Positions 13,656 through 55,504 of a stretch of DNA of 64,000 nt are shown here, piece after piece. Under the pieces are notes generated by a model. That model worked only from the letters and a program-made list of their open reading frames with translations. It made no database searches and was not told the origin of the DNA. Within the stretch, counting starts at the first letter, position 1. Every line of letters starts with the position of its first letter. The translations under genes were made by a program, and so were the position numbers. Source of the stretch: an uncultured Bacteroidota bacterium (GTDB lineage: Bacteria; Bacteroidota; Bacteroidia; AKYH767-A; 2013-40CM-41-45); NCBI GenBank assembly GCA_963775555.1, contig CAVZJJ010000004.1:30814-94813 (forward strand). The letters run 5' to 3'.

Positions 13656-13817
13656 GGTCGTTATTTTTTTATTTTACTTATGTAAGGGGATTGAATTTTA
13701 AGGATAAGAATTCTTAGTTTGAACTGATACTTGAAATAAGATTTATATCACTAACAAATTTATATATAAATACCTTGTATTTGATGAGGGTAATTTATAT
13801 ATGAGATTTTAGGATTA

Positions 13818-13860
13818 GTCATTTAGCTCCAGAATGTTCAACAACTGAAGCATCAATTAA
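13818..13860. repeat. 43-bp dispersed repeat, copy A (partner at 55606-55648)
   Basis: GTCATTTAGCTCCAGAATGTTCAACAACTGAAGCATCAATTAA. It matches copy B at 37 of 43 positions, including an exact 19-mer. Confidence 0.8.
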
Positions 13861-14660
13861 TAATGTTCCGTTTAATTATTTTTCCTTTATACAAAAAATA
13901 GTTTAACAATTGCAGAAATCAAATGGCTTCATGCATTCAATTTGGTAAAGCTCTTCAAGACCACATTTTATAAAAGAATTCATTCGTTTTGGAAGTAAAT
14001 GCTGACTCAATGCGGGTTCTAATGGGTCTTTGAGGAGAAGATAAAGTCTGATTTTTACAGCTGTTTATTTTCCGGAAAGAGATAGAGCCTATGTCGTTTA
14101 TTTCGAAAGCTTGATAGAATCCTTCCGTAAAACGTCTGAAAAACAAAAAAAAGGCAATAAAATCTTGTTTGCAGGGATTCGATGAATTTTAATTTCTAAT
14201 TTTTTATTTAATTATCATCATAAAAATATTTACCAATTAAATAAGTGCATTGGCCAAAAATAGTAAGAAAGCTATTCTTTGATCATGCTATAAATGAATC
14301 GTATTCAGCGCTCCTGAGTTGTTTTATTTCAATTTTGTTTTTTTAGACTCTCTTCGTCTTGATTGGTATTGGTTTAGCAGTTATTTTTATATTATTGATT
14401 GAATGCCTCTAACCCTTTTGTTGTGAGATTTCTATGAATCGGTGCTTGTAATTATTTATCACCTGTTACCTGGTTAATATTAATTTCAAGCAAGAAGATT
14501 GTGGGTTTCGAATTCATTCAGCAACAAGCTAAACTTAGCTTTATAGGTCATCCCGCTTAGAAGTTTTCTGTCATGAATTTTAATAATTTAAAACATATCC
14601 ACGACTCAAAGAAAATGATTTGAAAAAAAGATACCAGGGTATTAAAATTAATTTTCTCTG

Positions 14661-14677
14661 CAAAGGAAATTCCTTTG
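14661..14677. promoter_or_regulatory. perfect 8+1+8 palindrome CAAAGGAA-A-TTCCTTTG upstream of the giant gene
   Basis: Seen directly in the sequence. It lies 93 nt upstream of ATG 14770 and 174 nt upstream of ATG 14851. It may be an operator or a hairpin; no function is known. Confidence 0.3.
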
Positions 14678-14769
14678 TGGGGGAATTTTTATTGTAATCA
14701 TTTGATCAACTTGATCCTTCCCAAGAAGGGTATTTTTCAATTCGCTTATAAAAAATTTAAAGATTTATC

Positions 14770-17748
14770 ATGAACACAACTGACAATTACCCAATGAAAA
14801 ATAAAAACAATTTCGCTGCAAGAAATTTTAGTGCAATAAAGAAACACACCATGAAATCTTACTACTCATTTTCCCGCCGGCTGTTTAACAGCCTTGTACT
14901 TATTTGCTCTTTACTCCTGATGACCGGACCATCTGCCTATAGTCAGACTGCCTTGCAGTTTAATGGAACAAACCAGTATGTAACATTTGGTGTTGCTACG
15001 AGTACCTTGGGATCATCAACATTCACACTAGAAGCCTGGATTAAAAAAACAGCAGCCGGTCTTACTGTTACTACCGGTACAGGAGGCACAGTGGCAGTGC
15101 CTGTAATTACCAAGGGTAGAGGTGAAGGAGATACGCCTGCCAATTTGAATTGTAATTATTTCCTAGGACTTACTGCGGCAGGTATTCTGACTGCAGATTT
15201 TGAGGACAAGGCCACTGGATTAAATCATCCAATTACAGGTATAGCTGTACTTGCAACAAATACATGGTATCACATTGCTGCAACATATGACGGAACTACT
15301 TGGAGATTATACCTAAACGGAGTATTGGATAATTCGCTTGTTGTAGGTGCTTACTTACCAGAAAATACAAGTATCCAGCATGCAGGACTTGCTACAGCCA
15401 TGACTTCAGCCGGCACAAGTGGGGCTTCAGGATACTTTGCCGGTGTAATTGATGAAGCGCGTATTTGGAATGTAGCCCGCACCCAGGCACAAATCCAGGG
15501 AAGCATGAACTCCGAACTTACTTCCGGCACCGGCCTCCTGGGTCGATGGGGTTTGAATGATGGAAGTGGAACTTCTGCTGCAAACTCGATTGGAGGAAGT
15601 CCGGCAGGAACACTGACAAGTGGACCTACCTGGGTAACAGGAGCGCCGGCATTGGCCCCTCCCGCCACCATACCAACAGCTCCATCAGCTCTTTCCGCCA
15701 CTGCAGTATCTCCTTTCCAGATCAATCTTTCCTGGACAGATAATTCAGGTGATGAAACTGATTTTGAAATTGAAAGATCGACAACAGGTATAGGTGGAAC
15801 CTATTCACTTTTACAAACGGTAACTGCCAATACAACAACATATAGCAGTGTAACTCTTTCTGCAAGCAGCGAATATTGTTACAGGGTCCGTGCCATAAAT
15901 AGTGCCGGTGGATCCGGTTATGCCGGGCCGGCTTGTGCTACTACAACTGCTGAAGGTGATTACGGCCTTGATCTTGGGACATCCAGTGCTTATGTTACAT
16001 TCGGTACTGCCACAGGATTAGATGTATCCGATTTTACATTGGAAGCATGGATTAAAATTGAAGGAGCTGGAGTTACCACAACCACTAGCGGAACAGGGGG
16101 TGGTGGTTTAGAAGGTGCTACGGCTGCTGTGCCTATTGTAACTAAAGGAAGAGGGGAAGGGGAAAGTCCTGCCAATGTCAATATGAATTATTTCATGGGA
16201 TTGGTTGGTAATAAACTTGCGGCAGACTTTGAAGAGGGTACAGGGCCTAATCATTCGGTGATAGGCAATGCAACCATCCCATCCAATACATGGACACATG
16301 TGGCTGCCACTTATGATCCCCTCGATGCAGTCTGGAACCTTTACATCAACGGTGTATTGGATCAGACCCTGGATATTGGTACAAACATCGTTCCTGCCAA
16401 TACAAGTATTCAGCATGCAGGTATTGGAACTGCACTCACTTCAGCAGGTGCAGCAGCTGGTTTCTTCGATGGTAAAGTAGATGAGGTAAGAATTTGGAAC
16501 TATGCAAGAACCATATCAGAAATACAAGCGACAGTGAATTCTCAGATTCTTACTTCCCAATCAGGTCTCATTGGTCGATGGGGATTGAATGACCTTACCG
16601 GAACAGTCGTGAATGGAAGTGCAGGAACAAGTTTTACAGGAACAATTGTGGGGTCAGGTTCAAGCTGGTTTACGCCGGGTGCTCCTTTCAATCTTTCTTT
16701 TGTAGCTCCATCTGCTCCAACGTTGCTTTCCCCCACTGATGCTTCTACAGGAATTGCTATTGCTCCGACCTTGAGTTGGAATGCTGCTGCAGGTGCAATC
16801 ACCTATCAGATACAAGTATCTTCCGTAGCAAATTTTGCAACAACGGTATATGACCAAAGTGGAATAGCTATAACTTCTGCTGTAGTTTCACCTGCCCTTT
16901 TAAACAATACAATTTATTACTGGAGGGTAAATGCAACAAATACTGCAGGAACAAGTGCATGGTCGTCGGTCTGGAGTTTTACGACTTCGCCAATTGTGCC
17001 TGGAGAATATGCACTCCACTTTGGTTCGGGTGGAGCTTATGTCACCTTTGGAACAGCTTCAGGTCTGGCCTCACAAAACTTCACAGTGGAGACCTGGTTT
17101 AAAAAGACAGGAGCAGGAACACCAAATACTACCGGGGGCAGCGGCATTACAATCATTCCTTTGGTCACTAAAGGATCGCCGGAAGCAGAAGCAAGTAATG
17201 TGGATGCAAACTATATTCTTGGAATTCAATCAGGCACCAATGTCATTGCAGCAGATTTTGAAGAAGGAACCGGATCTGTTAGTGCCGGATTAAACCACCC
17301 ATTGGTGGGTAGCACCGTTATAGCAGATAATGTATGGCACCACGCGGCAGTTACATTTCATAACGGAGTGTACAGTATTTATCTGGATGGAGTTCTTGAA
17401 AACACAATAAATCTAACTGCATCGGTATATCCTCAAGGGGCAAGCATACAGCACGCAGCTCTGGGAACGATGATTAATTCAACCGGAACAGCAGTTGGAA
17501 AATTCCAGGGAGTACTTGATGAAGCACGCGTCTGGAATTATGGCAGAACATTATCAGAAATACAATCCACAATTAATTCTCAAATTACAACTTCTCAAGC
17601 AGGCTTACTTGGACGCTGGAGTCTTGATGAAGGTAGTGGCACCACTGTAAGCGGCAGTGCCGGAACAAGTTTTACAGGAACTATCACCGGCACAGGTTCA
17701 AGCTGGTTGACACCGGGTCGCTCCCTTCAATATAATATTTCCCCCTGA
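14770..17748 (+). CDS. N-terminal part of the giant surface protein: signal peptide plus 3 x (LamG-like + Fn3-like) modules; terminated by a frameshift
   Basis: The likely true start is ATG 14851 (MKSYYSFSRRLFNSLVLICSLLLMTGPSAYS|Q, a Sec signal peptide). There are three paralogous LamG/Laminin_G_3-like domains (EAWIKK..., DEARIWN..., GRWGLNDGSG). They are separated by one canonical Fn3 (INLSWTDNSGDETDFEIERS) and by Fn3-like modules (LSWNAAAG..YQIQVSS..YYWRVNA..SAWSSVWSFTT). The last 10 codons are out-of-frame junk following an extra base at about 17719. Confidence 0.85.
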   Translation: MNTTDNYPMKNKNNFAARNFSAIKKHTMKSYYSFSRRLFNSLVLICSLLLMTGPSAYSQTALQFNGTNQYVTFGVATSTLGSSTFTLEAWIKKTAAGLTVTTGTGGTVAVPVITKGRGEGDTPANLNCNYFLGLTAAGILTADFEDKATGLNHPITGIAVLATNTWYHIAATYDGTTWRLYLNGVLDNSLVVGAYLPENTSIQHAGLATAMTSAGTSGASGYFAGVIDEARIWNVARTQAQIQGSMNSELTSGTGLLGRWGLNDGSGTSAANSIGGSPAGTLTSGPTWVTGAPALAPPATIPTAPSALSATAVSPFQINLSWTDNSGDETDFEIERSTTGIGGTYSLLQTVTANTTTYSSVTLSASSEYCYRVRAINSAGGSGYAGPACATTTAEGDYGLDLGTSSAYVTFGTATGLDVSDFTLEAWIKIEGAGVTTTTSGTGGGGLEGATAAVPIVTKGRGEGESPANVNMNYFMGLVGNKLAADFEEGTGPNHSVIGNATIPSNTWTHVAATYDPLDAVWNLYINGVLDQTLDIGTNIVPANTSIQHAGIGTALTSAGAAAGFFDGKVDEVRIWNYARTISEIQATVNSQILTSQSGLIGRWGLNDLTGTVVNGSAGTSFTGTIVGSGSSWFTPGAPFNLSFVAPSAPTLLSPTDASTGIAIAPTLSWNAAAGAITYQIQVSSVANFATTVYDQSGIAITSAVVSPALLNNTIYYWRVNATNTAGTSAWSSVWSFTTSPIVPGEYALHFGSGGAYVTFGTASGLASQNFTVETWFKKTGAGTPNTTGGSGITIIPLVTKGSPEAEASNVDANYILGIQSGTNVIAADFEEGTGSVSAGLNHPLVGSTVIADNVWHHAAVTFHNGVYSIYLDGVLENTINLTASVYPQGASIQHAALGTMINSTGTAVGKFQGVLDEARVWNYGRTLSEIQSTINSQITTSQAGLLGRWSLDEGSGTTVSGSAGTSFTGTITGTGSSWLTPGRSLQYNISP

Positions 17749-18945
17749 TCCACCTATATTGATTTCGCCTGCTGATATATCTACAGGTATAAATGTTTCA
17801 CCAACTCTCAGCTGGAATGCAGCGGCAGGTGCAAGCAGCTATCAGATACAAGTATCTTCCGTAGCAAATTTTGCAACAACAGTATATGACCAAAGTGGAA
17901 TTGCTATAACTTCTGCTGTAGTTTCACCTGCCTTGTTGAACAACACTGTTTATTACTGGAGAGTAAATGCAAGCAATGCATCCGGAACAAGTGCATGGTC
18001 TTCGGTTTGGAGTTTCACTACAACAGCAGCTCCGAGTCCGCTGGTCTGCCATTTACAAATGGAAGAAGGAAGTGGATCCACATTATTTGATTCTTCGACT
18101 TATGGTAATAATGGCACAACTGTGGGAAGCCCGACATGGGCGACAGGTATATTTGGTCAGGCGCTGAGTTTGAACGGATCAACTCAATATGCTACCGTTG
18201 CCGATGCAGCCAGTCTCGATGTGAGTACTTCGATTACTCTGGCTGCCTGGATTAAACCAGCAGGGGCTTCGAATACTACACAGTATGTTATTAAAAAAGC
18301 AACCCAGGGTACGACCAATGGTTATGAACTCTCTTTGTCGAGTGCAGGAAAGGTCTTTGTTCGCTTCAACCAATTTACAAGCGCGGATACCTATAGAATC
18401 AATTCAGTATCGTCTTATCCGTTGAACAGCAGTGCCTGGATGCATATCGCGGCAACGTATGATGGGACAACAATGAAGTTGTACGTTAACGGAATTCAGG
18501 AAAGCGGTAATCTTGCAGGACCGGCTGCAATTGTGACCAATACGCTGCCTCTGGGTATCGGTGCACAAGGCGATGGCGTCTCTAAATTCAACGGACTGTT
18601 GGATGATGTAAGAGTATATAACGTTGCTCTTACTTTAGCAGAAATACAAGCTTTGGCTTCTCCGCCAAGTCCAGGCTTAATTTCTCCTGCAGATCTTGCA
18701 AGCGGAGTAGCTCTTTCTCCCGGCTTAAGCTGGAATGCATCTGCAACGGCCACTTCTTATCAGGTACAGGTTTCCACGACATCTGATTTTTCCAGTACAG
18801 TATATGACCAGAGTGGAATAGCAACAACATCCACTACTGTATCACCTGCCTTGTTGAACAACACTGTTTATTACTGGAGAGTAAATGCAAGTAACGCTTT
18901 CGGAACAAGTGCATGGTCTTCAGTTTGGAGTTTTACTACAGCGGT
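14947..18945 (+). other. LamG-like x4 / Fn3-like x4 head region
   Basis: LamG-like domains lie at about 14947-15640, 15955-16680, 17005-17718 and 18040-18660. Fn3 or Fn3-like modules lie at about 15670-15945, 16710-16995, 17760-18030 and 18665-18945. The last three Fn3-like modules are about 90% identical at DNA level over parts of their length. Confidence 0.7.
17713..17731 (+). other. single-base frameshift site joining the two giant ORFs
   Basis: Here the sequence is ccgggtCgctcccttcaat. The paralogous junction at 16676-16693 is ccgggtgctcctttcaat (PGAPFN). Removing one base restores ...SSWLTPGAPFNIIFPPDPPILISPADISTG... in the frame of the 17759 ORF, which is open from 17711. Confidence 0.8.
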
Positions 18946-39900: not shown

Positions 39901-42900
39901 CACGTTAAACGAAGTTGGTTGTGATTCTACAGCTACCTTGAACCTGGCGATCAGAAACAGTTCAACGTCCAGTTCAACAGTAGATGTGTGTGATTCATAT
40001 ACGTGGAACGGAACTACCTACACGGCATCCAGAGTTTATACCTTTAGTTCAACGAATGCAGCAGGTTGTGATTCAACAGCGACATTGAACTTAACAATCC
40101 GTTACGCTACCACTTCCAGTTCAACAGTAGATGTTTGCGATTCGTATACCTGGAATGGAGCTACCTACACGGCATCAGGAACCTATACTCATTCCACGTT
40201 AAACGAAGTTGGATGTGATTCTACAGCCACTCTGGACTTAACCATTCGTTATGCTAGCACATCAAGCTCAACAGTAGATGTGTGTGATTCATATTCGTGG
40301 AACGGAACTACCTACACGGCATCCGGAGTTTATACCTTTAGTTCAACGAATGCAGCAGGTTGTGATTCTACCGCTACATTGAACCTGGCGATCAGAAACA
40401 GTTCAACGTCCAGTTCGACTGAAGATGTTTGCGATTCGTATACCTGGAACGGTACTAACTACACAACATCAGGAACCTATACTTATTCCACGTTAAACGA
40501 AGCAGGTTGTGATTCTACAGCCACTCTGGACTTAACCATTCGTTATGCTAGCACATCAAGCTCAACAGTAGATGTGTGTGATTCATATTCGTGGAACGGA
40601 ACTACCTACACAGCATCAGGAATCTATACTTATTCCACGTTAAACGAAGTTGGTTGTGATTCGACGGCTACATTGGATCTGACGATTCGTTATGCTAGCA
40701 CTTCCAGTTCAACGGTGGATGTCTGTGACAGCTATACCTGGAACGGCACGACTTATACTACGTCTGGAGTTTATACCTATAGCACGCTCAATGAAGCAGG
40801 TTGTGATTCGACAGCAACACTCAACTTAACGATACGTTACGCTACCACATCAAGCAGTACAGAGGATGTTTGTGACAGCTATACCTGGAATAGTACGACT
40901 TATACTACGTCCGGAGTTTATACTTATAGCACGCTCAACGAAGCAGGATGTGATTCAACGGCAACACTCAACTTAACGATCCGTTACGCTACCACATCGA
41001 GTTCAACAGAAGATGTTTGCGACAGCTATACCTGGAATGGAACTACCTACACAACATCAGGAACCTATACTTATTCCACGTTAAACGAAGTTGGATGTGA
41101 TTCTACGGCCACTCTGAACTTAACAATCCGTTACGTTACCACTTCCAGTTCAACGGTGGATGTTTGTGACAGCTATACTTGGAACGGAAATAACTACACA
41201 GCATCAGGAGCCTATACTTATTCCACGTTAAACGAAGTTGGATGTGATTCTACGGCCACACTGAATCTGACGATCCGATCTGCTACAACTTCCAGTTCAA
41301 CAGTAGATGTGTGTGATTCATATACGTGGAACGGAACTACCTACACGGCATCCGGACTTTATACCTTTAGTTCAACGAATGCAGCAGGTTGTGATTCAAC
41401 AGCGACATTGAACTTAACAATCCGTTACGCTACCACTTCCAGTTCAACGGTGGATGTGTGTGATTCGTATACCTGGAATGGAACTACCTACACAGCATCA
41501 GGAACCTATACTTATTCCATGCTGAACGAAGCAGGTTGTGATTCTACGGCCACTCTGAACTTAACCATCCGTTATGCTAGCACATCAAGCTCAACAGTAG
41601 ATGTATGTGATTCATATTCGTGGAACGGAAATACCTACACGGCATCAGGACTTTATACCTTTAGTTCAACGAATGCAGCAGGTTGTGATTCAACAGCGAC
41701 ATTGAACTTAACAATCCGTTACGCTACCACTTCCAGTTCAACGGTGGATGTATGTGATTTATATTCGTGGAACGGAACTACCTACACAACATCAGGAACC
41801 TATACTTATTCCACGTTAAACGAAGTTGGATGTGATTCTACGGCCACTCTGAACTTAACCATCCGTTATGCAACAACTTCCAGTTCAACGGTGGATGTTT
41901 GCGATTCGTATACCTGGAATGGAACTACCTACACAACATCAGGAACCTATACTTATTCCACGTTAAACGAAGTTGGATGTGATTCAACGGCTACATTGAA
42001 CCTGACGATTCGATCTGCTACAACTTCCAGTTCAACGGTGGATGTTTGCGACAGCTATACCTGGAATGGAACGACTTACATTGCATCGGGAGTTTATACC
42101 TATAGCACAACAAATGCAGCAGGATGTGATTCGACAGCAACACTCAACTTAACGATCCGTTATGCTACCACATCAAGCAGTACAGAGGATGTTTGTGACA
42201 GCTACACTTGGAACGGCACTACCTATACTGCATCCGGAGTTTATTCGTATAGCACTCTTAATGCTGCAGGTTGTGATTCTACCGCTACATTGAACCTGGC
42301 GATCAGAAACAGTTCAACTTCCAGTTCAACAGTAGATGTGTGTGATTCATATACGTGGAACGGAACTACCTACACGGCATCCGGAGTTTATACCTTTAGT
42401 TCAACGAATGCAGCAGGTTGTGATTCTACCGCTACATTGAACCTGGCGATCAGAAACAGTTCAACGTCCAGTTCGACTGAAGATGTTTGCGATTCGTATA
42501 CCTGGAATGGAACTGCCTACACAGCATCAGGAGTCTATACCTTTAGTTCAACGAACGCAGCAGGTTGTGATTCAACAGCGACATTGAACTTAACAATTCG
42601 TTACGCTACCACTTCCAGTTCAACGGTGGATGTTTGTGATTCATATACGTGGAACGGAAATACCTACACGGCATCAGGAACCTATACTTATTCCACGTTA
42701 AACGAAGTTGGTTGTGATTCTACGGCCACTCTGAACTTAACCATCCGTTATGCAACAACTTCCAGTTCAACGGTGGATGTTTGCGATTCGTATACCTGGA
42801 ATGGAGCTACCTACACGGCATCAGGAACCTATACTTATTCCACGTTAAACGAAGTTGGATGTGATTCAACGGCTACTTTGAACCTGACGATTCGATCTGC

Positions 42901-44266
42901 TACAACTTCCAGTTCAACGGTGGATGTTTGCGATTCGTATACCTGGAATGGAACTACCTACACAGCATCAGGAGTCTATACCTTTAGTTCAACGAATGCA
43001 GCAGGTTGTGATTCTACAGCCACTCTGAACTTTACCATCCGTTATGCTAGCACATCAAGCTCAACAGTAGATGTTTGTGATTCATATTCGTGGAACGGAA
43101 CTACCTACACGGCATCAGGAACCTATACTTATTCCACGTTAAACGAAGTTGGTTGTGATTCAGCGGCTACATTGAACCTGACGATTCGATCTGCTACAAC
43201 TTCCATTTCAACAGTGGATGTATGTGACAGCTATACGTGGAACGGAACTACCTACACAGCATCAGGAACCTATATTTATTCAACGTTAAACGAAGTTGGA
43301 TGTGATTCAACGGCTACATTGGATCTGACAATTCGTTATGCATCCACTTCCAGTTCAACGGTGGATGTCTGTGACAGCTACACCTGGAACGGCACGACTT
43401 ACACTACATCGGGAGTTTATACATATAGCACGCTCAACGAAGCAGGTTGTGATTCAACAGCAACACTCAACCTTACAATTCGTAACAGCACATCTTCCAC
43501 AGAAACAATCACTGCCACCAACTCTTATACATGGCCTGTGAATGGAATTACTTACACAACAAGCGGCACCTATACACACACAGGTGTAAATCTTGCCGGT
43601 TGTTCGCATGTAAGCACCTTGATCCTGACCATTGATATAAACGGAGTTAATCTTGATCTGAAGTTATTCCTTGAAGGGTACATTGTCAGTTCCGGTCCAA
43701 CTATGATGTACAGCACCTTGTATGATCTTGAACAAGGAGGAATGCTGACCGGACCTTATAGCTTTGATGCTACCGATACTATTCAGGTGAATCTTTGGAC
43801 CGCTGCCAGTGTAGCACTTGGAAATCTTGATCCTGACTATTCAGAGAAGGTCATCCTTCACAACGATGGTTCGGCTTCAGTGAACTTCGCCACTGCCCCT
43901 GCCGGCGATTATTACATCGCGGTGAAACATAAGAACAGTATTGAGACCTGGAGCAGCCTTGAAGTGGCCCTGTCTTCTACAGCAATTCTATATGACTTCA
44001 GCGACCTGATCACACGTGCTTATGATGATGGCACAAACCCTCCTATGCAGAATGTGGGCGGTGTATTTGCATTCTACAGTGGAGATGTCAACCAGGATGG
44101 AACCGTGGATGCTGTGGATATGAATTATGTGTATAATGACAATAACCTTTCCCTCTACGATTACCTTATAACGGATTGTACAGGAGACGGTACGGCAGAT
44201 GCTGTGGACATGAACTATGTTTATAATAACAATAACCTGTCATTATACTATGCCCGTCCTTATTAA
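17759..44266 (+). CDS. main body of the giant multidomain surface protein (8,835 codons as given in the ORF track)
   Basis: An uninterrupted 26.5-kb frame. The ORF-track start is a TTG, and the first in-frame ATG is about 100 codons downstream. It has no signal peptide of its own, and its first residues continue the Fn3-like module expected after LamG3 of the upstream ORF. The domain order is listed in the sub-features. Confidence 0.9.
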   Translation: MISPADISTGINVSPTLSWNAAAGASSYQIQVSSVANFATTVYDQSGIAITSAVVSPALLNNTVYYWRVNASNASGTSAWSSVWSFTTTAAPSPLVCHLQMEEGSGSTLFDSSTYGNNGTTVGSPTWATGIFGQALSLNGSTQYATVADAASLDVSTSITLAAWIKPAGASNTTQYVIKKATQGTTNGYELSLSSAGKVFVRFNQFTSADTYRINSVSSYPLNSSAWMHIAATYDGTTMKLYVNGIQESGNLAGPAAIVTNTLPLGIGAQGDGVSKFNGLLDDVRVYNVALTLAEIQALASPPSPGLISPADLASGVALSPGLSWNASATATSYQVQVSTTSDFSSTVYDQSGIATTSTTVSPALLNNTVYYWRVNASNAFGTSAWSSVWSFTTAVAGPTTLVLQDGLNGYSGTRDTYIWETTPATPRGAETTFVQDINASDERRSLLLFDLSSIPSGASIQSAELQFYVDAEGEGFNMHRMLVPWDEATVCYTSIGNRHFAANSTDAESAVDINWPGNLGYTGFITITVPASTVQDWINGTMTNNGWLMIGTHATNGQQLRSREYATAGDRPKLTVIYSTAIVPLITISGTPLSAFSSQAGSPSTEQSYTVSGSNLTDSILITAPADFEISTILGGDYGPFITLYPSGNAVSSTTIYVRLNRSTGGASSGDITHTSNGATTQNVSLSGTTTETLPTVVLQDGLNGYSGTRDTYIWDSAPTTVRGAETTIVQDKNVSLNPLDERMSLLQFDLTSIPTGSVIQSAELQFYVSSEGQGFDMYRMLVPWDEATLTYASIGNRYFAADDVDAEAAANTSWPGVDTYTGYITVSVPASTIQDWIDGTLTNNGWLMIAIHNDDGQQLASRENATAANRPKLTVTYSSGIANVPPNQPVDPSPLDHVSSLSTSPNICATVSDPDGDHLQVQFYGRVKSGSTSNFTVVGLPDTQFYTEDPQGANSGGGGSNAIFKVQTQWIADHRLDSNIVFVTHLGDCAQNGDAKIIEWQRADTSMKKIEYPNVPITDGIPFGICVGNHDQGTIGNPDGNTTYYNQFFGQVRFTGRGYYGGHYGSNNDNHYQLFSAGGINFIHISIEYYVNGTTSSLQPVLDWADALLKTYSNRKAILSSHNMLGTGNPANFQGPGQKIYDDLKDNPNLILMLAGHVSGEGRRTDTYNGNTIHTLMADYQSGYSNGGNGYLRIMQFIPEENLLSVKTFSPYSNTSFTGASSEFTLPVNLTQGYALLGTNTNVTSGTSSCIQWPSLVQGQEYEWYVVVSDGEYSTTGPVWTFTANNVNPPIVTTEPISQSKCAGDAVSFISAASGDPVLTVQWQISTDNGTSWNDTTGATNPTLTFTTTASDNGKQYRAIWSNGSGKDTTLAVVLTIHPAIIVSNVSHSAIICNGGTATVTITAGGGTAPLAYTFNGVGPQASNIFTGISAGAAYVYSVSDANNCDPATGTFDVLEPAAIISSTTITACDSSEWNGVFYTSSGSYTTTGLISSAGCDSSATVVLTINNSTSSSLSVTATNTYTWSANSVTYTASGTYTAVSTNGVGCTQTDTLILIINGNFGSNISDENALTGNPPSEWDNISGAGDLSIQGFATDISVNRGNQVRFKINTDASAYTINIYRLGYYQGNGARWVGTGVVTATLPQTQPADLYDPVTALTDCGNWDESAHWDVPSNAVSGVYIARLERADNNGASHIIFIVRDDSGNADILFKTSDATWQAYNGYGGNSLYPPGVGASGPPALNHASKVSYNRPFYTRAGGGGSSAAEDWVFNAEYPMIRWLERNCYNVSYSTDVDMDRDASPITPSIHKILLSVGHDEYWSAAERTKFENARNSGVHLAFLSGNEIYWKTRWENSIDASNTPHRTLVCYKEGTLGENVCGTKCDPLSTEWTGLWRDGCAYPGADGCNPENALTGQISWVGSTGAITVPDTYKAFRFWRNTSIASLGIGQTATLSANTLGYEWDPASTNGKYPYGRILLSNTSLSQTHNLSLYRHSSGAVVFGAGTVQWSWGLDGVHDMGSSTEDVRMQQATINLFADMGVTPACIQAGLVANSPTDVTAPLSVISSPVNTDTLTDGNTVSIIGTASDVDGVVAGVEVSFDGGTTWNLAIGTTSWTYSWTPTTLGATTIHSRAYDDNGNMEATGTAPSANAINVIITTGPAVACPCSIFQPSDTPVNLNGNDGNAIEVGTKFNSSENGYVTGVRFYKAAGDNGTHIGNLWTGTGTILGSVTFTGETASGWQEMSFGSPIAINADTTYVISYHSSANYYTFTQNYFASAVVNGFLKALADGEDGPNGVYTYSPSTAFPTSSYLKSNYWVDVVFDTSLAPDVTPPTVISVVPANNASSISINASVNGTFNEAIDPATLSASTFELRDPLNAIVNASVSYNAATRTATLTPSSALAYSTVYTANLIGGLTDPRIKDVAGNALAANYSWTFTTESAPPPPPSEGPGGPILVISDASNPFSRYPVEILRAEGLNEFYAMDISIVNAGVLLNYDVVILGEMTLGGAQVTMLTDWVNAGGVLIALRPDAQLSTLLGITVAGGSLADKYLLVNTATGPGVGIVNQTIQFHGAADQYNLNGATSLATLYSDASTTTVYPAVTTNDVGGNGGKAISFTYDLAKSVVYTRQGNPVWADQKRDGQTGPIRSDDQFFPDWIDFNKIAIPQADEQQHLLANIILKGNLHKKPLPRTWFLPKGLKAAVVMTGDDHGDAGMQPRFDINIAESNVGCSVEDWECIRSTGYLYVGTTFTNAQAIAYNNMGFEVALHVNTNCLNFTDTQFQSLITSQMGAFQSVYTGIPAPATNRNHCIAWSGYSMTAEVEAANGIRFDVNYYYWPASWINNRPGMFTGSGIPMRFAKTDGSIIDCYQGTTQMPDESGETFPAFINALLDKANGPEGYYGVFTTNMHFDNTNHADANAIVASAKARGIPVVSAKQMLDWLDGRNGSSFNSIQWSNNQLSFEVNAASGSRNMKGMVPTACENGNLNSITYNGGSLSYTTETIKGIQYAFFDATLGSGTYVADYSPDTTAPVISNIIATPHGNGTATITWDTDEQSTSWVDYAASPGTLSLNSSDPALVTSHSVTLTGLMQAQTYYFRVTSADFATNSTTSPVPPDSLSFTMPASPCASDQTSADFNGGTTVSNTLIIPDGDGAVSLSPALIEEFSGTSIPSGWTEGIFNAGGTTFSGGVVTVNGTHIYSNSNFGPGSSIEFAATYNLGDFQNVGFSDDQPFNNSPWVTIGQGLTPDGNVYARASDGSNINIGSSLLGTSHVYRINWNATNFEFYIDGNTTPAATINLTVASNMYLQISDVHSTDGVLSVDWIRLLPYATPGTFISRIFDAGSVKDWGIVSWTEDLPSGTTLQLSQRQSNSNVAILGASWTSIPFNGATIGGTSQYIQYKADFTTSNTAFTPVLMDVSIACTTPQDSPPTVTTDPLSQTKCDGETVSLVSGASGNPLPDVQWQVSTDNGLTWQDLISETNAVLTFTVSNSENGYQYRAIWTNTFGIDTSLSATLIVNAAPSATIIAANNPICPGGIVELQLTGATGASPYSIVVNGNTYSPVTAGTTFASLDPTEFSIWGNTGSPVNTSVNDGQDIEVGTKFRSTLSGYVNGVRFYKGLTNTATHVAHLWTSGGTLLATETFTSETASGWQEVRFTSPVPITANTTYIVSYFSPNPGNFAISAGFFASAGVTNGPLTALQAGIDGVNGVYAYGGGFPSGGNNANYWVDVLFSQIDLSMPLSFDLSSITDNNGCINTGSPLSNVTVTVNSLPEGTVSATPSTVCDGGVVNLTYTSTAGSGPFSLVINGITYPNIISGIPFSAGLASYSGTPASIWTPSTVGGTNVVDNTATELGIHFRSSLPGTISGIRFYKTGTDILTFTGSLWDLGNTTIPLATASILTDATPGWKQIDFPSPITIPANTTYMASYFSPSPNYYSYTSGGLSTPVVNAPLTAESSFYKQPGPGFPVSNSTANYWVDVVFNSATSISTFNLTSISGSAGCTSSGSPISSANVNVLNNSASSSSTPITACDLYTWNGVAHNASGTYTTTGLTNSVGCDSSATVVLTINYSSTSSSTEDVCDTYTWNGNTYTVSGVYTFSSTNAAGCDSTATLNLTIRNSSTSATTEDVCDSYSWNGTTYTASGTYTYSTLNEVGCDSTATLNLTIRNSSTSSSTVDVCDSYTWNGTTYTTSGTYTYSTLNEVGCDSTATLNLTIRYASTSSSTVDVCDSYTWNGTTYTASGVYTFSSTNAAGCDSTATLNLTIRYATTSSSTVDVCDSYTWNGTTYTASGTYTYSMLNEAGCDSTATLNLTIRYASTSSSTVDVCDSYSWNGNTYTASGLYTFSSTNAAGCDSTATLNLTIRYATTSSSTVDVCDLYSWNGTTYTTSGTYTYSTLNEVGCDSTATLNLTIRYATTSSSTVDVCDSYTWNGTTYTTSGTYTYSTLNEVGCDSTATLNLTIRSATTSSSTVDVCDSYTWNGTTYIASGVYTYSTTNAAGCDSTATLNLTIRYATTSSSTEDVCDSYTWNGTTYTASGVYSYSTLNAAGCDSTATLNLTIRNSSTSATTEDVCDSYSWNGNIYTTSGTYTYSTLNEVGCDSTATLNLTIRSATTSSSTVDVCDSYTWNGTTYTTSGTYTYSTLNEVGCDSTVTLNLTIRYVTTSSSTVDVCDSYTWNGNNYTASGAYTYSTLNAAGCDSTATLNLTIRSATTSSSTVDVCDSYTWNGATYTASGTYTYSTLNEVGCDSTATLNLTIRNSSTSSSTVDVCDSYTWNGTTYTTSGTYTYSTLNEVGCDSTATLDLTIRYATTSSSTVDVCDSYTWNGTTYTASGVYTFSSTNAAGCDSTATLNLTIRYATTSSSTVDVCDSYTWNGTTYTASGTYTYSTLNEAGCDSTATLNLTIRYASTSSSTVDVCDSYSWNGTTYTASGTYTYSTLNDVGCDSTATLNLTIRYASTSSSTVDVCDSYTWNGNTYTASGTYTYSTLNEVGCDSTATLNLTIRSATTSSSTVDVCDSYSWNGTTYTASGVYTFSSTNAAGCDSTATLNLTIRYASTSSSTVDVCDSYTWNGTTYTASGVYTFSSTNAAGCDSTATLNLTIRYATTSSSTVDVCDSYTWNGATYTASGTYTYSSLNEVGCDSTATLNLTIRYASTSSSTVDVCDSYTWNGTTYTASGTYTYSTLNEVGCDSTATLNLTIRYATTSSSTVDVCDSYTWNGTTYTASGTYTYSTLNEVGCDSTATLNLTIRNSSTSSTTEDVCDSYTWNGTTYTTSGTYTYSTLNEVGCDSTATLNLTIRNSSTSATTEDVCDSYSWNGTTYTTSGTYTYSTLNEAGCDSTATLDLTIRYASTSSSTVDVCDSYSWNGTTYTASGIYTYSTLNEVGCDSTATLDLTIRYASTSSSTVDVCDSYTWNGTTYTTSGVYTYSTLNEAGCDSTATLNLTIRYATTSSSTEDVCDSYTWNSTTYTTSGVYTYSTLNEAGCDSTATLNLTIRYATTSSSTEDVCDSYTWNGTTYIASGVYTYSTTNAAGCDSTATLNLTIRYATTSSSTEDVCDSYTWNGTTYTASGVYSYSTLNAAGCDSTATLNLTIRYASTSSSTVDVCDSYSWNGTTYTASGVYTFSSTNEAGCDSTATLNLTIRNSSTSATTEDVCDSYSWNGTTYTVSGTYTYSTLNEVGCDSTATLNLTIRYATTSSSTVDVCDSYSWNGITYTATGTYTYSTLNEVGCDSTATLNLTIRSATTSSSTVDVCDSYTWNGTTYTTSGTYNYSTLNEVGCDSTATLNLTIRSATTSSSTVDVCDSYTWNGTTYTTSGVYTFSSTNAAGCDSTATLNLTIRNSSTSATTEDVCDSYSWNGTTYTASGVYSYSTLNEAGCDSTATLNLTIRNSSTSSSTVDVCDSYSWNGNTYTASGVYTFSSTNAAGCDSTATLNLTVRYATTSSSTVDVCDSYTWNGTTYTASGVYTYSTLNEAGCDSTATLNLTIRYASTSSSTEDVCDSYTWNGTTYIASGVYTYSTTNAAGCDSTATLNLTIRYASTSSSTVDVCDSYTWNGTTYTTSGTYTYSTLNEVGCDSTATLNLTIRNSSTSATTEDVCDSYSWNGTTYTASGTYTYSTLNEVGCDSTATLNLTIRYATTSSSTVDVCDSYTWNGTTYTASGTYTYSTLNEVVCDSTATLNLTIRNSSTSATTEDLCDSYTWNGNTYTASGTYTYSTLNEVGCDSTATLNLTIRSATTSSSTVDVCDSYTWNGTTYTASGTYTYSTLNEVGCDSTATLNLAIRNSSTSSTTEDVCDSYTWNGTTYTTSGTYTYSTLNEVGCDSTATLNLAIRNSSTSSSTEDVCDSFTWNGTTYTVSGTYTYSTLNEVGCDSTATLNLTIRNSSTSSTTEDVCDSYTWNGTTYTASGVYTFSSTNAAGCDSTATLNLTIRYASTSSSTVDVCDSYSWNGNIYTTSGTYTYSTLNEAGCDSTATLDLTIRYASTSSSTVDVCDSYSWNGTTYTASGIYTYSTLNEVGCDSTATLDLTIRYASTSSSTVDVCDSYTWNGTTYTTSGVYTYSTLNEAGCDSTATLNLTIRYATTSSSTEDVCDSYTWNSTTYTTSGVYTYSTLNEAGCDSTETLNLTIRYATTSSSTEDVCDSYTWNGTTYIASGVYTYSTTNAAGCDSTATLNLTIRYATTSSSTEDVCDSYTWNGTTYTASGVYSYSTLNAAGCDSTATLNLTIRYASTSSSTVDVCDSYSWNGTTYTASGVYTFSSTNEAGCDSTATLNLTIRNSSTSATTEDVCDSYSWNGTTYTTSGTYTYSTLNEVGCDSTATLNLAIRYASTSSSTVDVCDSYTWNGTTYATSGVYTYSTTNAAGCDSTATLNLTIRYATTSSAIVDVCDSYTWNGTTYTTSGVYAYSTLNEAGCDSTATLNLTIRYASTSSATEDVCDSYTWNGTTYTASGVYTYSTLNEAGCDSTATLNLTIRYATTSSSTEDVCDSYTWNGTTYIASGVYTYSTTNAAGCDSTATLNLTIRYATTSSSTEDVCDSYTWNGTTYTASGVYSYSTLNAAGCDSTATLNLTIRYASTSSSTVDVCDSYSWNGTTYTASGVYTFSSTNEAGCDSTATLNLTIRNSSTSATTEDVCDSYSWNGTTYTVSGTYTHSTLNEVGCDSTATLDLTIRYATTSSSTVDVCDSYSWNGTTYTTSGTYTYSTLNEVGCDSTATLNLTIRSATTSSSTVDVCDSYTWNGTTYTASGTYTYSTLNEVGCDSTATLNLTIRSATTSSSTVDVCDSYSWNGTTYTASGVYTFSSTNSAGCDSTATLNLTIRSATTSSSTVDVCDSYTWNGTTYTASGIYTYSTLNEVGCDSTATLNLTIRSATTSSSTVDVCDSYSWNGTTYTASGTYTYSTLNEVGCDSTATLNLAIRNSSTSSSTVDVCDSYTWNGTTYTASRVYTFSSTNAAGCDSTATLNLTIRYATTSSSTVDVCDSYTWNGATYTASGTYTHSTLNEVGCDSTATLDLTIRYASTSSSTVDVCDSYSWNGTTYTASGVYTFSSTNAAGCDSTATLNLAIRNSSTSSSTEDVCDSYTWNGTNYTTSGTYTYSTLNEAGCDSTATLDLTIRYASTSSSTVDVCDSYSWNGTTYTASGIYTYSTLNEVGCDSTATLDLTIRYASTSSSTVDVCDSYTWNGTTYTTSGVYTYSTLNEAGCDSTATLNLTIRYATTSSSTEDVCDSYTWNSTTYTTSGVYTYSTLNEAGCDSTATLNLTIRYATTSSSTEDVCDSYTWNGTTYTTSGTYTYSTLNEVGCDSTATLNLTIRYVTTSSSTVDVCDSYTWNGNNYTASGAYTYSTLNEVGCDSTATLNLTIRSATTSSSTVDVCDSYTWNGTTYTASGLYTFSSTNAAGCDSTATLNLTIRYATTSSSTVDVCDSYTWNGTTYTASGTYTYSMLNEAGCDSTATLNLTIRYASTSSSTVDVCDSYSWNGNTYTASGLYTFSSTNAAGCDSTATLNLTIRYATTSSSTVDVCDLYSWNGTTYTTSGTYTYSTLNEVGCDSTATLNLTIRYATTSSSTVDVCDSYTWNGTTYTTSGTYTYSTLNEVGCDSTATLNLTIRSATTSSSTVDVCDSYTWNGTTYIASGVYTYSTTNAAGCDSTATLNLTIRYATTSSSTEDVCDSYTWNGTTYTASGVYSYSTLNAAGCDSTATLNLAIRNSSTSSSTVDVCDSYTWNGTTYTASGVYTFSSTNAAGCDSTATLNLAIRNSSTSSSTEDVCDSYTWNGTAYTASGVYTFSSTNAAGCDSTATLNLTIRYATTSSSTVDVCDSYTWNGNTYTASGTYTYSTLNEVGCDSTATLNLTIRYATTSSSTVDVCDSYTWNGATYTASGTYTYSTLNEVGCDSTATLNLTIRSATTSSSTVDVCDSYTWNGTTYTASGVYTFSSTNAAGCDSTATLNFTIRYASTSSSTVDVCDSYSWNGTTYTASGTYTYSTLNEVGCDSAATLNLTIRSATTSISTVDVCDSYTWNGTTYTASGTYIYSTLNEVGCDSTATLDLTIRYASTSSSTVDVCDSYTWNGTTYTTSGVYTYSTLNEAGCDSTATLNLTIRNSTSSTETITATNSYTWPVNGITYTTSGTYTHTGVNLAGCSHVSTLILTIDINGVNLDLKLFLEGYIVSSGPTMMYSTLYDLEQGGMLTGPYSFDATDTIQVNLWTAASVALGNLDPDYSEKVILHNDGSASVNFATAPAGDYYIAVKHKNSIETWSSLEVALSSTAILYDFSDLITRAYDDGTNPPMQNVGGVFAFYSGDVNQDGTVDAVDMNYVYNDNNLSLYDYLITDCTGDGTADAVDMNYVYNNNNLSLYYARPY
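18955..19500 (+). other. DNRLRE-like (CBM96-like) domain, copy 1
   Basis: VLQDGLNGYSGTRDTYIW...ERRSLLLFDLSSIPSGASIQSAELQFYV...HRMLVPWDEATVCY...NNGWLM...RPKLTVIY. This pattern matches the DNRLRE domain as I remember it. Confidence 0.6.
19845..20400 (+). other. DNRLRE-like domain, copy 2
   Basis: A paralogue of copy 1 (VLQDGLNGYSGTRDTYIW...ERMSLLQFDLTSIP...YRMLVPWDEATLTY...RPKLTVTY). Confidence 0.6.
20565..21410 (+). other. calcineurin-like metallophosphoesterase domain
   Basis: Motifs in the canonical order: GLPDTQ, HLGDCAQNGD, GNHD (20846-20857), SSHN and AGHVSGEG. Confidence 0.7.
21630..22135 (+). other. Ig-like domain followed by a SprB-repeat-like module
   Basis: PPIVTTEPISQSKCAGDAVSFISAASGDPVLTVQWQISTDNGTSW...YRAIWSN is Ig-like. 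It is followed by CNGGTATVTITAGGGTAPLAYTFNG...YSVSDANNC, which resembles a SprB repeat. Confidence 0.5.
22140..22440 (+). repeat. isolated two-unit copy of the Cys-pair repeat (founder-like module)
   Basis: The two units are ITACDSSEWNGVFYTSSGSYTTTGLISSAGCDSSATVVLTINNS and VTATNTYTWSANSVTYTASGTYTAVSTNGVGCTQTDTLILIING. They resemble the first and last units of the 94-unit array respectively. Confidence 0.75.
22445..23905 (+). other. N,N-dimethylformamidase beta-subunit-like domain
   Basis: ENALTGNPPSEWD...IQGFATDISVNRGNQVRFKINTDASAYTINIYRLGYYQGNGAR ... VGHDEYWS ... GNEIYWKTRWE ... GYEWD ... QQATINLFADMG. The pattern is as I remember it for this family, which often co-occurs with DUF4082. Confidence 0.55.
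24253..24735 (+). other. DUF4082 domain, copy 1
   Basis: IEVGTKFNSSENGYVTGVRFYKAAGDNGTHIGNLWTGTGTILGSVTFTGETASGWQEMSF..TTYVISYHS...NYWVDVVF. Confidence 0.7.
24740..25080 (+). other. bacterial Ig-like (Big_5 / SbsA-type) domain followed by a PPPPPS linker
   Basis: DVTPPTVISVVPANNASSISINASVNGTFNEAIDPATLSASTFELRD...VAGNALAANYSWTFTT. Confidence 0.6.
25110..26830 (+). other. central region of about 570 aa of unassigned fold (possible amidotransferase-like plus deacetylase/hydrolase-like parts)
   Basis: I recognise no secure motif. The segments GPILVISDASNPFSRYPVEILRAEG...DVVILGE and AAVVMTGDDHGDAG...ALHVNTNC...NHCIAW are only suggestive. Confidence 0.25.
26835..27095 (+). other. Fn3 domain
   Basis: DTTAPVISNIIATPHGNGTATITWDTDEQSTSWVDY...YYFRVTSADFATNSTTS. 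Confidence 0.6.
27130..27745 (+). other. ConA-like lectin/glucanase-type domain (tentative)
   Basis: The beta-rich segment ...IEFAATYNLGDFQNVGFSDD...HVYRINWNATNFEFYIDGN...LSVDWIRLLPY resembles the LamG/ConA-like fold. Confidence 0.35.
28030..28310 (+). other. Ig-like domain, second copy
   Basis: PPTVTTDPLSQTKCDGETVSLVSGASGNPLPDVQWQVSTDNGLTW...YRAIWTN. It is a paralogue of the domain at 21630. Confidence 0.5.
28487..28950 (+). other. DUF4082 domain, copy 2
   Basis: IEVGTKFRSTLSGYVNGVRFYKGLTNTATHVAHLWTSGGTLLATETFTSETASGWQEVRF...TTYIVSYFS...NYWVDVLF. Confidence 0.7.
29254..29700 (+). other. DUF4082 domain, copy 3
   Basis: ELGIHFRSSLPGTISGIRFYKTGTDILTFTGSLWDLGNTTIPLATASILTDATPGWKQIDF...TTYMASYFS...NYWVDVVF. 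Confidence 0.65.
30435..31435 (+). repeat. second higher-order block, copy 1 (units 5-10)
   Basis: Matches 41313-42313 (offset 10878 = 74 units) with only a handful of mismatches over about 1 kb. Confidence 0.8.
33700..34750 (+). repeat. 7-unit higher-order block, copy A (units 27-33)
   Basis: Near-identical to 37081-38106 (offset 3381 = 23 units, one mismatch seen at 37571). It is partly identical to 38561-39160 (offset 4410) and 40470-41041 (offset 6762). Confidence 0.85.
37081..38106 (+). repeat. 7-unit higher-order block, copy B (units 50-56)
   Basis: See copy A. About 1.0 kb of identity except for a single A-to-E codon change (CDSTETLNL). Confidence 0.85.
38561..39160 (+). repeat. partial higher-order block, copy C (units 60-63)
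   Basis: Identical by eye to 34151-34750 (offset 4410 = 30 units). Confidence 0.8.
40470..41041 (+). repeat. partial higher-order block, copy D (units 73-75)
   Basis: Matches 33708-34279 (offset 6762 = 46 units) with one mismatch seen. Confidence 0.8.
41313..42313 (+). repeat. second higher-order block, copy 2 (units 79-84)
   Basis: See 30435-31435. Confidence 0.8.
43640..44263 (+). other. C-terminal module of about 205 aa with two dockerin/EF-hand-like loops; no T9SS sorting domain recognised
   Basis: LKLFLEGYI...DYYIAVKHKNSIETWS...FYSGDVNQDGTVDAVDMNYVYN (44081-44125) and DCTGDGTADAVDMNYVYN (44181-44213). The protein ends ...LSLYYARPY. Confidence 0.6.
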
Positions 44267-44272
44267 ACTTTG

Positions 44273-44318
44273 ATTCTGCATGATATCCGATTTAAGATAT
44301 CATGCAGAATTTATTCTT
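44273..44318 (+). terminator. intrinsic terminator of the giant gene
   Basis: A perfect 15-bp stem (ATTCTGCATGATATC at 44273-44287 with GATATCATGCAGAAT at 44296-44310) and an 8-nt loop, followed by TTATTCTTG. It begins 7 nt after the TAA stop. Confidence 0.8.
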
Positions 44319-54889: not shown

Positions 54890-55504
54890 GGACAAACAAA
54901 TTAAAAGTGGTTCCCTCAATACGTTTTTAAGCAGCTAAAAGTTGTATAAAACGCAATGACAGCGCGGTCAATTGATAAAATTCATCCGGAATTTTGTCAG
55001 AGGTACAGAAAAATGAAATCGGCTTTGTACGATGAGGATGTTTTAAAAGTTACGCAGGAAAATAAAATAAAAGGGTTCAAGCATTAATAATTTTATTCTG
55101 CCGGGCAGAATCTTCGTGTGTAAGCCAATTATACTACGGAGGATTCCGACCGCAAACGGAAGCGATCCGCGCAGCAGACCTTTTTATTTCGTAAAAATAA
55201 ATAACATTAAAATAAGGGAAAATTATTTTTATTTTCTCTGGATCAACTCTTACTTTTTTCCTTGATGAAAAAAGTAAGCAAAAAAATCAAGACCAATTGA
55301 TTCTGCCAGCCGCAAGGGCGGACGCTTCCCGCGCAATTGGTCGGGCCCGCGCGCAGCAATGAACAAGCTTGGTGTCATTGAATTATTTGAATTAATAAAT
55401 AACATGTAGAACAGAATGCACCAATTAGAGCTTGACTAGCAATGGTTTTGGAATTACGAACTAAATGGATTATCCTAAAACTAAATTTAATTATTCTTTG
55501 TGAA

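Follow-up and report, generated by a model that had tools for sequence, protein, structure and literature searches.

The two open reading frames

Two adjacent open reading frames, ORF1 and ORF2, lie on the same strand of the 64,000-nucleotide stretch of DNA analysed here (the window; Table 1). The ORF2 frame is open from position 17711, immediately 3' of a TGA at 17708-17710, and both frames can be read from there to the ORF1 stop. The sequence at 17713-17731 is ccgggtCgctcccttcaat. Deleting base 17719 in silico opened a single frame from ATG 14851, 9,804 codons long and closed only by the terminal stop, and across 17719 this intact gene would encode ...SSWLTPGAPFNIIFPPDPPILISPADISTGINVSPTLSWNAAAGASSYQ... 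Deletion of T17718 led to the identical protein (CCG GGC GCT CCC, encoding PGAP), so the identity of the extra base is ambiguous; neither deletion shortens a homopolymer. The first-pass annotation had described one gene of about 9,800 codons split near 17,719, with an ORF1 stop at 17,748, an ORF2 frame open from 17,711 and a fused product of about 9,804 aa from ATG 14,851. Both coordinates were reproduced, and the one-base deletion restored the frame as predicted.

Table 1. Position and content of the features discussed, numbered along the window.
Feature	Position	Strand	Content
ORF1	14770..17748	+	992 aa; listed from ATG 14770; out-of-frame stop at 17748
Gene 5' part	14851..17718	+	frame 1; signal peptide, then LamG-Fn3-LamG-Fn3-LamG
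Sec-type signal peptide	14851..14943	+	MKSYYSFSRRLFNSLVLICSLLLMTGPSAYS then Q; identified by inspection
Intact paralogous LamG-to-Fn3 junction	16675..16692	+	ccgggtgctcctttcaat (PGAPFN); unique in window
Sigma-70 consensus	17707..17736	+	TTGACA-18 nt-TATAAT; 12/12 match; spans extra base; E. coli-type consensus, may not be that of the host
Two-frame open overlap	17711..17748	+	38 nt; frame 1, TPGRSLQYNISP then stop; frame 2, HRVAPFNIIFPPD
Extra-base site	17718..17719	+	removal of T17718 or C17719 gives ...SSWLTPGAPFNIIF...
Gene 3' part	17720..44266	+	frame 2; Fn3, LamG, Fn3, two DNRLRE, metallophosphoesterase-like region, Ig domains
Candidate slip site	17743..17749	+	CCC_TGA_T; end of ORF1
ORF2	17759..44266	+	8835 aa as listed; TTG start
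Cys-repeat tandem array	29972..43455	+	91.7 copies of a 147-nt (49-aa) two-cysteine repeat (TRF)
C-terminal domain	43637..44263	+	about 210 aa; ends in paired dockerin-like Ca-binding motifs GDVNQDGTVDAVD / DCTGDGTADAVD
Terminator-like hairpin	44272..44311	+	16-bp stem; directly 3' of stop codon
Por_Secre_tail protein (T9SS-CTD)	50891..54919
SprA/Sov (T9SS)	57341..63955		2480 bits

The 5' part of the gene matches Laminin_G_3 in three stretches (E 2.6e-61), fn3 and Ig_Rha78A_N. No TAnnTTTG motif was found upstream of ORF1, so the choice of start codon among 14851, 14794 and 14770 relies solely on where the signal peptide lies. In the ORF2 frame, ATG first occurs at 18059, which is 100 codons past the listed TTG, with only TTG and ATA ahead of it. 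No SD sequence was seen at the ORF2 start, and the first residues contain no hydrophobic stretch and no signal peptide. ORF2 begins inside a module, and look-ups of its start variants returned no record, a result that carries no weight for the TTG and GTG variants, which were queried with L or V, not M, as first residue. The translations thus agree with the first-pass annotation, which had placed a Sec signal peptide on ORF1 only and described ORF2 as having no ATG for about 100 codons, no signal peptide and a start in the middle of a domain.

Beyond its Ig domains, the 3' part contains DMFA2_C, three DUF4082 stretches, Big_5, the Cys-repeat array and the C-terminal domain. The array has no match to a Pfam family above the curated cut-off. 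Its 92 units show a dN/dS of about 0.11 at a median dS of 0.97, indicating that the ORF2 frame encoded a working protein until very recently. A PDB sequence search with the repeat and the C-terminal region gave no significant match. Dockerin_1 (PF00404) matches the C-terminal domain with an E-value of 0.0048 and 17.5 bits, below the 22.9 cut-off, and NCBIfam gave no match to this domain. Three other proteins (P0139, P0138 and P0145) share it, and the homologues P0217 and P0248 carry PF00404. The last 321 aa contain neither a type A (TIGR04183/PF18962) nor a type B (TIGR04131/PF13585) T9SS sorting domain; PF18962 or PF13585 is present in many proteins that share the Cys repeat. A terminator had been predicted at 44.3 kb, where we located the hairpin of Table 1.

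Homology across the break and known relatives

The third LamG module ends in a conserved TPGAPFN, and the extra base shifts the frame between its G and its A. The break lies within the LamG-end motif ...SAGT..GTITG.G.SW.TPG/APFN (the slash marks the break), and W-x-TPG/APFN is present in 90 of 120 homologous proteins. In an alignment of 21 sequences, W, P and N of the motif do not vary at all, and G, A and F hardly do. The gene holds an intact paralogous copy of this junction, PGAPFN, whose sequence had been given correctly in the first-pass annotation; its position had been placed at 16,676-16,693, one base to the right of the true one. Alignment of the DNA of both LamG-to-Fn3 junctions requires exactly one 1-nt gap, located at the break.

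The junction is crossed by 105 BLASTP homologue alignments, with at least 60 aa on either side, each in a single polypeptide. Four homologues of about 1,450-1,490 aa (P0009, P0011, P0017 and P0037) span fused residues 721/722 to about 1550; P0017 and P0037 come from Chitinophagaceae and bear the name DNRLRE domain-containing protein. Giant homologues surfaced only with a 3,000-aa query, as the search apparently lists no matches longer than about 1.75 times the query. Among the relatives found, P0258 is the nearest; it is 67% identical over 1,226 aa and carries a signal peptide followed by the DNRLRE / metallophosphoesterase-like / Ig / Cys-repeat core seen in ORF2, all in one protein. Searches of the protein database, GTDB genomes and JGI metagenomes yielded no true orthologue. 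Exact-protein queries for the contigs that encode ORF1 (from ATG 14770 or ATG 14851), P0139 and P0258 returned no contig. The GTDB and JGI metagenome scans, run with a 556-aa junction query, returned distant LamG proteins only, with best-segment identities of at most 74% and none orthologous. The housekeeping proteins TyrRS, RuvB and PyrC are singletons at 90% identity in a cluster look-up, which points to a source lineage without a close sequenced relative.

The frames of ORF1 and ORF2 were once continuous, and the downstream frame was formerly under purifying selection. We therefore consider it very likely, with a probability of about 90%, that a single gene of 9,804 codons occupies 14851-44266, encodes a giant multidomain cell-surface protein exported through Sec in a Bacteroidota-type bacterium, and is interrupted by one extra base at 17718/17719. 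The reading of the two ORFs as one gene is thus supported, all its testable parts having held. The break is an ordinary frameshift lesion or a sequencing error and not a new kind of genetic element. Like other frameshift-split coding sequences, which bacterial annotations show as pseudogenes or adjacent ORFs, the locus combines a same-strand overlap, homologues that align across the break, a one-base repair, and a downstream part without start codon or export signal. It differs from the usual case in the unusual length of the gene (29.4 kb), in which one lesion strands 8,848 codons. Annotation should join ORF1 and ORF2 into a single gene with a frameshift flag, or correct the sequence if reads show an error; keeping them separate would lead to the false prediction of an 8,835-aa cytoplasmic protein.

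The neighbouring T9SS genes, for SprA and for a T9SS-CTD protein, are consistent with a secreted surface protein. Among the features expected of T9SS cargo, a signal peptide (by inspection) and the machinery are present, while the sorting domain is absent. No RNA family of Rfam matches anywhere in the window. Secreted LamG/Fn3/DNRLRE proteins of Chitinophagaceae, Saprospiraceae and related Bacteroidota (among them P0017, P0037, P0264 and, nearest, P0258) share the LamG-Fn3-LamG-Fn3-DNRLRE grammar at 37-67% identity, the TPGAPFN at the LamG end and the N-terminal signal peptide. They are 1.4-3 thousand aa long, many with a T9SS type A C-terminal domain (PF18962), whereas the protein described here reaches 9.8 thousand aa and has in addition DMFA2_C, DUF4082, Big_5, the 92-unit Cys array and the dockerin-like end. 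Giant bacterial genes have been surveyed (bioRxiv 10.1101/2023.11.21.568195), and the extracellular Giant1-5 of Apilactobacillus kunkeei measure 3,000-8,000 aa (PMC12863079). The present gene resembles these giant surface-protein genes in its very long ORF, extracellular-type modules and long tandem arrays; it differs in its other domain content and in the interruption of its ORF, and at 9.8 thousand aa its product is large but far below the record. If intact, this product would rank among the larger bacterial surface proteins. It combines the 92-unit Cys array, for which Pfam has no match above cut-off, with an unusual dockerin-like C-terminus, and the organism bears a T9SS.

Age and origin of the extra base

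Under a neutral model, a stop codon in ORF2 is expected with 95% probability by 0.23% divergence. From this we infer that the lesion is either very recent or not real. The three options of the first-pass annotation, namely a very recent lesion, a sequencing error or a bypass, are still the right three.

There is nearly an even chance that the insertion is real and has only recently inactivated the gene or cut it down to a secreted LamG/Fn3 protein of 965 aa; the locus would then be a pseudogene at an early stage, or a giant, costly adhesin would have been lost at strain level. The extra base is present in the sequence as given, ORF1 is recorded as a separate protein in both NCBI and ENA, and a 29-kb gene is a large mutational target. 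A related giant gene, on a 383-kb contig, also appears fragmented (P0258 and P0139). In such a case, ribosomes starting at 14851 would stop at the TGA 17746-17748 and release a 965-aa LamG/Fn3 precursor, and the remaining 8,848 codons, without a start codon or export signal of their own, would stay untranslated except for rare slippage. However, the 26.5 kb of downstream frame contain no second lesion, so such an event must be younger than about 0.1-0.2% neutral divergence.

The same undamaged 26.5 kb speak for a consensus or assembly error, the organism's gene being intact and making the 9,804-aa protein; this is a plausible origin of the extra base, to which we give rather less than even odds. 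The inserted base does not duplicate a neighbour, which is unusual for spontaneous slippage, and the site lies in paralogous repeat DNA, where read mapping and polishing are weaker; the paralogues share a 94-nt stretch at 98% identity, beginning about 120 nt downstream of the site. The assembly of the 13.5-kb tandem array into a 3.07-Mb contig suggests long reads, which is also compatible with such an error. On the other hand, the 20 nt surrounding the site are sufficiently distinct from the paralogue for unique mapping, and an inserted base outside a homopolymer is atypical for most platform errors, as it is for slippage mutations. No frameshift was seen in the roughly 34 kb of remaining coding sequence of the window; all genes there with a family match have their full length unless truncated by an end of the window, which speaks against an error-rich assembly yet is compatible with one isolated error.

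Promoter-like and slippery sequences at the lesion

The perfect sigma-70 match that spans the extra base would have a 17-nt spacer without that base. Such matches are expected 0.08 times per window, and none was found in 106 fetched loci. The presence of this rare 12/12 consensus exactly at the lesion raises the idea that ORF2 might be a gene in its own right, with its promoter at 17707-17736 and its start codon at TTG 17759; the predicted transcription start, at about 17744, is some 15 nt before this TTG. However, the Bacteroidota -7 motif TAnnTTTG is located 22-29 nt before the start codons of four window genes, so the host sigma factor appears to be of the Bacteroidota type and not one for the E. 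coli consensus. A Bacteroidota-type sigma factor is not known to use the E. coli consensus. Both hexamers are moreover codon by-products of the conserved peptide (TTGACA from L-T, TATAAT from N-I-I), with a spacing set at 17 nt by the length of the motif. The product would also begin mid-module and lack a signal peptide, yet contain extracellular-type Cys-rich domains. An independent ORF2 is thus highly improbable and, as the host appears to use Bacteroidota-type promoters, we judge the sigma-70 match over the lesion to be a coincidence. A cloning artefact in E. coli, through selection against the perfect promoter, was also considered and is unsupported; independent clones would not share an identical insertion.

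The 3' end of ORF1 reads TCC CCC TGA T, where tRNA-Pro can still pair after a +1 shift, with the codon CCU. A real insertion might therefore be partly bypassed, some ribosomes slipping +1 on CCC_UGA (17743-17748) and continuing in the ORF2 frame, which we regard as improbable. The slippery CCC does precede a stop inside the two-frame overlap, and there are precedents: in E. coli, CCC_TGA gives more than 1% of +1 frameshifting (PMC10861913), and a single-base insertion in rpoB is suppressed at 5% by a CCC slip site that the mutation itself exposes (summarised in PMC10861913). As in rpoB, the insertion exposes CCC and a slowly decoded codon, and a +1 slip would restore the frame after a few altered residues; in contrast to these precedents, there is no stimulator, the host is not E. 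coli, and the slippage is a predicted one. In a model of the paralogous module, the residues that would be replaced fall beyond the last LamG strand, in a segment that forms no strand.

Several observations speak against a bypass. The sequence upstream of CCC_TGA, cttcaatataatatttcc, holds no GGAGG-like element, hence no SD-like stimulator, and the organism shows no use of SD sequences. UGA-U is not known as a weak context for termination. In the +1 frame, the codons for the conserved APFN lie 24 nt upstream of CCC_TGA, and a shift at the latter does not restore this motif; the historical frame change took place at 17718/19, where GGU cannot re-pair at +1. The frame change therefore originated in a mutation and does not reflect a site designed for recoding. 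Compared with programmed +1 sites of the prfB type, a slippery codon and a stop in the overlap are present, while a stimulator and restoration of the conserved sequence are absent. Transcriptional slippage at the C5 run 17741-17745 was discarded, this run being too short for it.

The kind of lesion is ordinary, and of interest only if it is real and bypassed by ribosomal slippage. A leaky CCC_UGA by which one mRNA would give mostly the 965-aa secreted LamG/Fn3 protein and a little of a giant surface protein of 9.8 thousand aa is more doubtful still than a bypass as such. If true, it would be a natural case in which suppression of a frameshift mutation controls how much of a giant adhesin a Bacteroidota-type bacterium makes. 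The +1 slip would join ...LQYNISP to DPPILISP..., giving a giant protein with RSLQYNISP in place of APFNIIFPP, next to the 965-aa termination form as the major product. The latter would end in ...SLQYNISP, while the slip product would carry the peptide ...LQYNISPDPPILISPADISTGINVSPTLSWNAAAGASSYQ... / ...TPGRSLQYNISPDPPILISPADISTGINVSPTLSWNAAAGASSYQ...

Evidence for a single gene

ORF1 and ORF2 are one gene, as four lines of evidence show. The ORF1 frame ends in ...GTGSSWLTPGRSLQYNISP*, while the frame of ORF2 begins HRVAPFNIIFPPDPPILISPADISTG...; the DNA at 17713-17731 reads ccgggtCgctcccttcaat. Frame translation confirmed that ORF1 stops at 17748 and that the ORF2 frame is already open from 17711, as the first-pass annotation had it. 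Its central claim, that one extra base near 17,719 splits a single gene, was also borne out: deletion of C17719 yields one ORF of 9,804 codons from ATG 14851. Deletion of T17718 instead gives an identical protein, so that which base is extra is ambiguous; neither sits in a homopolymer. An intact paralogous LamG-to-Fn3 junction, ccgggtgctcctttcaat, had been correctly recognised in the same gene, though its true site, 16675-16692, lies one base to the left of that first proposed. It occurs once in the window, and aligning the two junction regions requires exactly one 1-nt gap, at the break point.

The break falls inside the closing element of this LamG module type, ...SAGT..(N/T)GTITG.G.SW.TPGAPFN(I/L).F..., a pattern found in 90 of the 120 best homologues. 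Across a 21-sequence alignment the W, P and N never change and the G, A and F hardly do. The window has TPG in the ORF1 frame and APFN in the ORF2 frame. BLASTP of the repaired protein (the translation after the one-base deletion) gave 105 alignments with homologues that cross the junction and extend 60 residues or more to both sides of it. Among these homologues, P0009, P0011, P0017 and P0037 (each ~1,450-1,490 aa) hold LamG-Fn3-LamG-Fn3-DNRLRE in one chain; the last two come from Chitinophagaceae and carry the name DNRLRE domain-containing protein.

Given its start, N-terminus and modules, ORF2 cannot exist independently. Its earliest ATG, at 18059, lies 100 codons past the listed TTG, in line with the gap of about 100 codons first described. 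It begins in mid-module, and no hydrophobic N-terminus was found in it, although its modules are of extracellular type (Fn3, LamG, two DNRLRE, Ig, DMFA2_C, three DUF4082 stretches, Big_5 and 92 Cys-containing repeats). Both features had been anticipated, as had the confinement of the signal peptide to ORF1: by inspection, a Sec-type signal peptide occurs only after the 14851 start. For ORF2 as a gene of its own one could cite the perfect sigma-70 consensus that encloses the extra base, since the expected number of such sites is just 0.08 per window. This reading is highly improbable. Both hexamers are explained by codons of the conserved peptide WLTPGAPFNII, L-T giving TTGACA and N-I-I giving TATAAT, and four window genes carry the Bacteroidota -7 motif TAnnTTTG 22-29 nt 5' of the start codon; the site is thus treated as a coincidence. 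Without the insertion the spacing is the optimal 17 nt, set by peptide length, and no perfect TTGACA-18-TATAAT site was found in 106 fetched loci.

Features of the giant gene and its surroundings
Feature	Position	Strand	Description
Terminator-like hairpin	14653-14685	+	strong; 15-bp stem and T run; within 13656-14769
ORF1	14770-17748	+	992 aa; mechanical ORF list
Near-identical stretches	16803-16896 and 17839-17932	+	94 nt; two paralogous Fn3 modules; flanks only ~75-85% identical
Sigma-70 consensus	17707-17736	+	TTGACA-18 nt-TATAAT; 12/12 match
ORF2	17759-44266	+	TTG start; 8835 aa; mechanical ORF list
Tandem Cys-repeat array	29972-43455	+	92 units of 147 nt (49 aa); two Cys per unit
C-terminal domain	43637-44263	+	LKLFLEGY...ARPY; ~210 aa; two dockerin-like Ca-binding motifs at end
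T9SS protein	50891-54919	-	1,342 aa; type A sorting domain
SprA/Sov	57341-63955	-	T9SS translocon; cut by window end

Origin of the extra base and its possible bypass

The 92 repeat units have a median dS of 0.97 and a dN/dS of 0.11, and their mean identity is 78% in DNA versus 85% in protein, so the ORF2 frame has long evolved as protein. Of the point substitutions that could occur in ORF2, 4.9% would create a stop; a frame drifting neutrally should, at 95% probability, have gained one or more stops by the time divergence reaches 0.23%, or ~0.09% with indels counted. The lesion is thus very recent, not real, or tolerated. A real recent mutation is, by a narrow margin, the likeliest origin, with a probability of roughly 0.45.

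That the base is an error is almost as probable. The assembly here is a 3,065,335-bp contig, and all family-matched window genes (sucA, sucB, nadB, tyrS, pyrC, acs, ruvB, queG, ubiX, the 1,342-aa T9SS protein and SprA) are full length or cut by the window edge alone. Indels are therefore not common in the assembly, though a single residual error could still have occurred. No orthologue was found in a 5.8-billion-protein collection, GTDB genomes or JGI metagenomes; in this genome, TyrRS, RuvB and PyrC each cluster alone at 90% identity. The lesion sits within paralogous DNA, and ~120 nt 3' of it starts a 94-nt stretch of 98% identity between paralogues; since its flanks are only ~75-85% identical, the pattern points to recent gene conversion among the gene's own modules.

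A real extra base with meaningful bypass is improbable. ORF1 ends in TCC CCC TGA T (17740-17749). CCC_TGA gives >1% +1 frameshifting in E. coli, and a single-base insertion in rpoB showed 5% suppression by a CCC slip site exposed by the mutation (PMC10861913). A slip at the ORF1 end would yield ...TPGRSLQYNISP-DPPILISP..., with nine residues replaced. AlphaFold, applied to the intact paralogous module (mean pLDDT 77), places the TPGAPFN segment past the last LamG-associated strand and gives it no strand of its own, so the slipped product might fold. Against programmed frameshifting, no SD-like stimulator was found, nor was SD use seen in the organism; the conserved APFN is encoded 5' of the slip site, in the other frame; and GGU at the true break is unable to re-pair at +1. 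The CCC_TGA site is most simply read as an accident of the insertion. A frameshift-interrupted giant gene is supported, observation and interpretation of the first-pass annotation both being upheld; it is a familiar kind of event, of modest intrinsic interest.

Relatives and features of the giant protein

The nearest relative found lies on a 383,040-bp contig from a different assembly and supplies the fourth line of evidence for a single gene. It encodes P0258 (2,945 aa), where one chain runs from a signal peptide through N-terminal modules into an ORF2-type core (Fn3, two DNRLRE, a metallophosphoesterase-like region, Ig and Cys repeats); this core is 67% identical to repaired residues 1277-2495 over 1,226 aa. 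The tail of P0258, within the Cys repeats, looks out-of-frame (...TTNRTYRNWWM). P0139, on a contig of the same length, matches the last 266 residues of the repaired protein at 93% identity, and its initial M falls within the last repeat. The N-terminal module order in this relative is unlike that of the window gene, so it offers no orthologous junction for comparison. Judged from these sequences, its giant gene appears likewise fragmented.

The 1.1 kb upstream of the window gene (13656-14769) is without an ORF of at least 100 aa, and Rfam gave no family match there. The repaired product is predicted to be a giant surface protein of many domains, exported by Sec. The genome has T9SS machinery, and the 1,342-aa T9SS protein and SprA/Sov lie 7-13 kb downstream. 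No T9SS C-terminal domain was recognisable in the giant protein, which has dockerin-like motifs where a type A or B sorting domain would be expected (the Dockerin_1 match is sub-threshold). Its ~210-aa C-terminal domain, common to P0139 and two further homologues, P0138 and P0145, may serve in sorting or anchoring and be of a type not yet described. For the 49-aa repeat (consensus roughly CDSYTWNGTTYTASGTYTYSTLNEVGCDSTATLNLTIRYATTSSSTVDV), no Pfam family scored above the curated cut-off and a PDB sequence search found no relative; the repeat is common among Bacteroidota proteins that do have a T9SS domain at the C-terminus.
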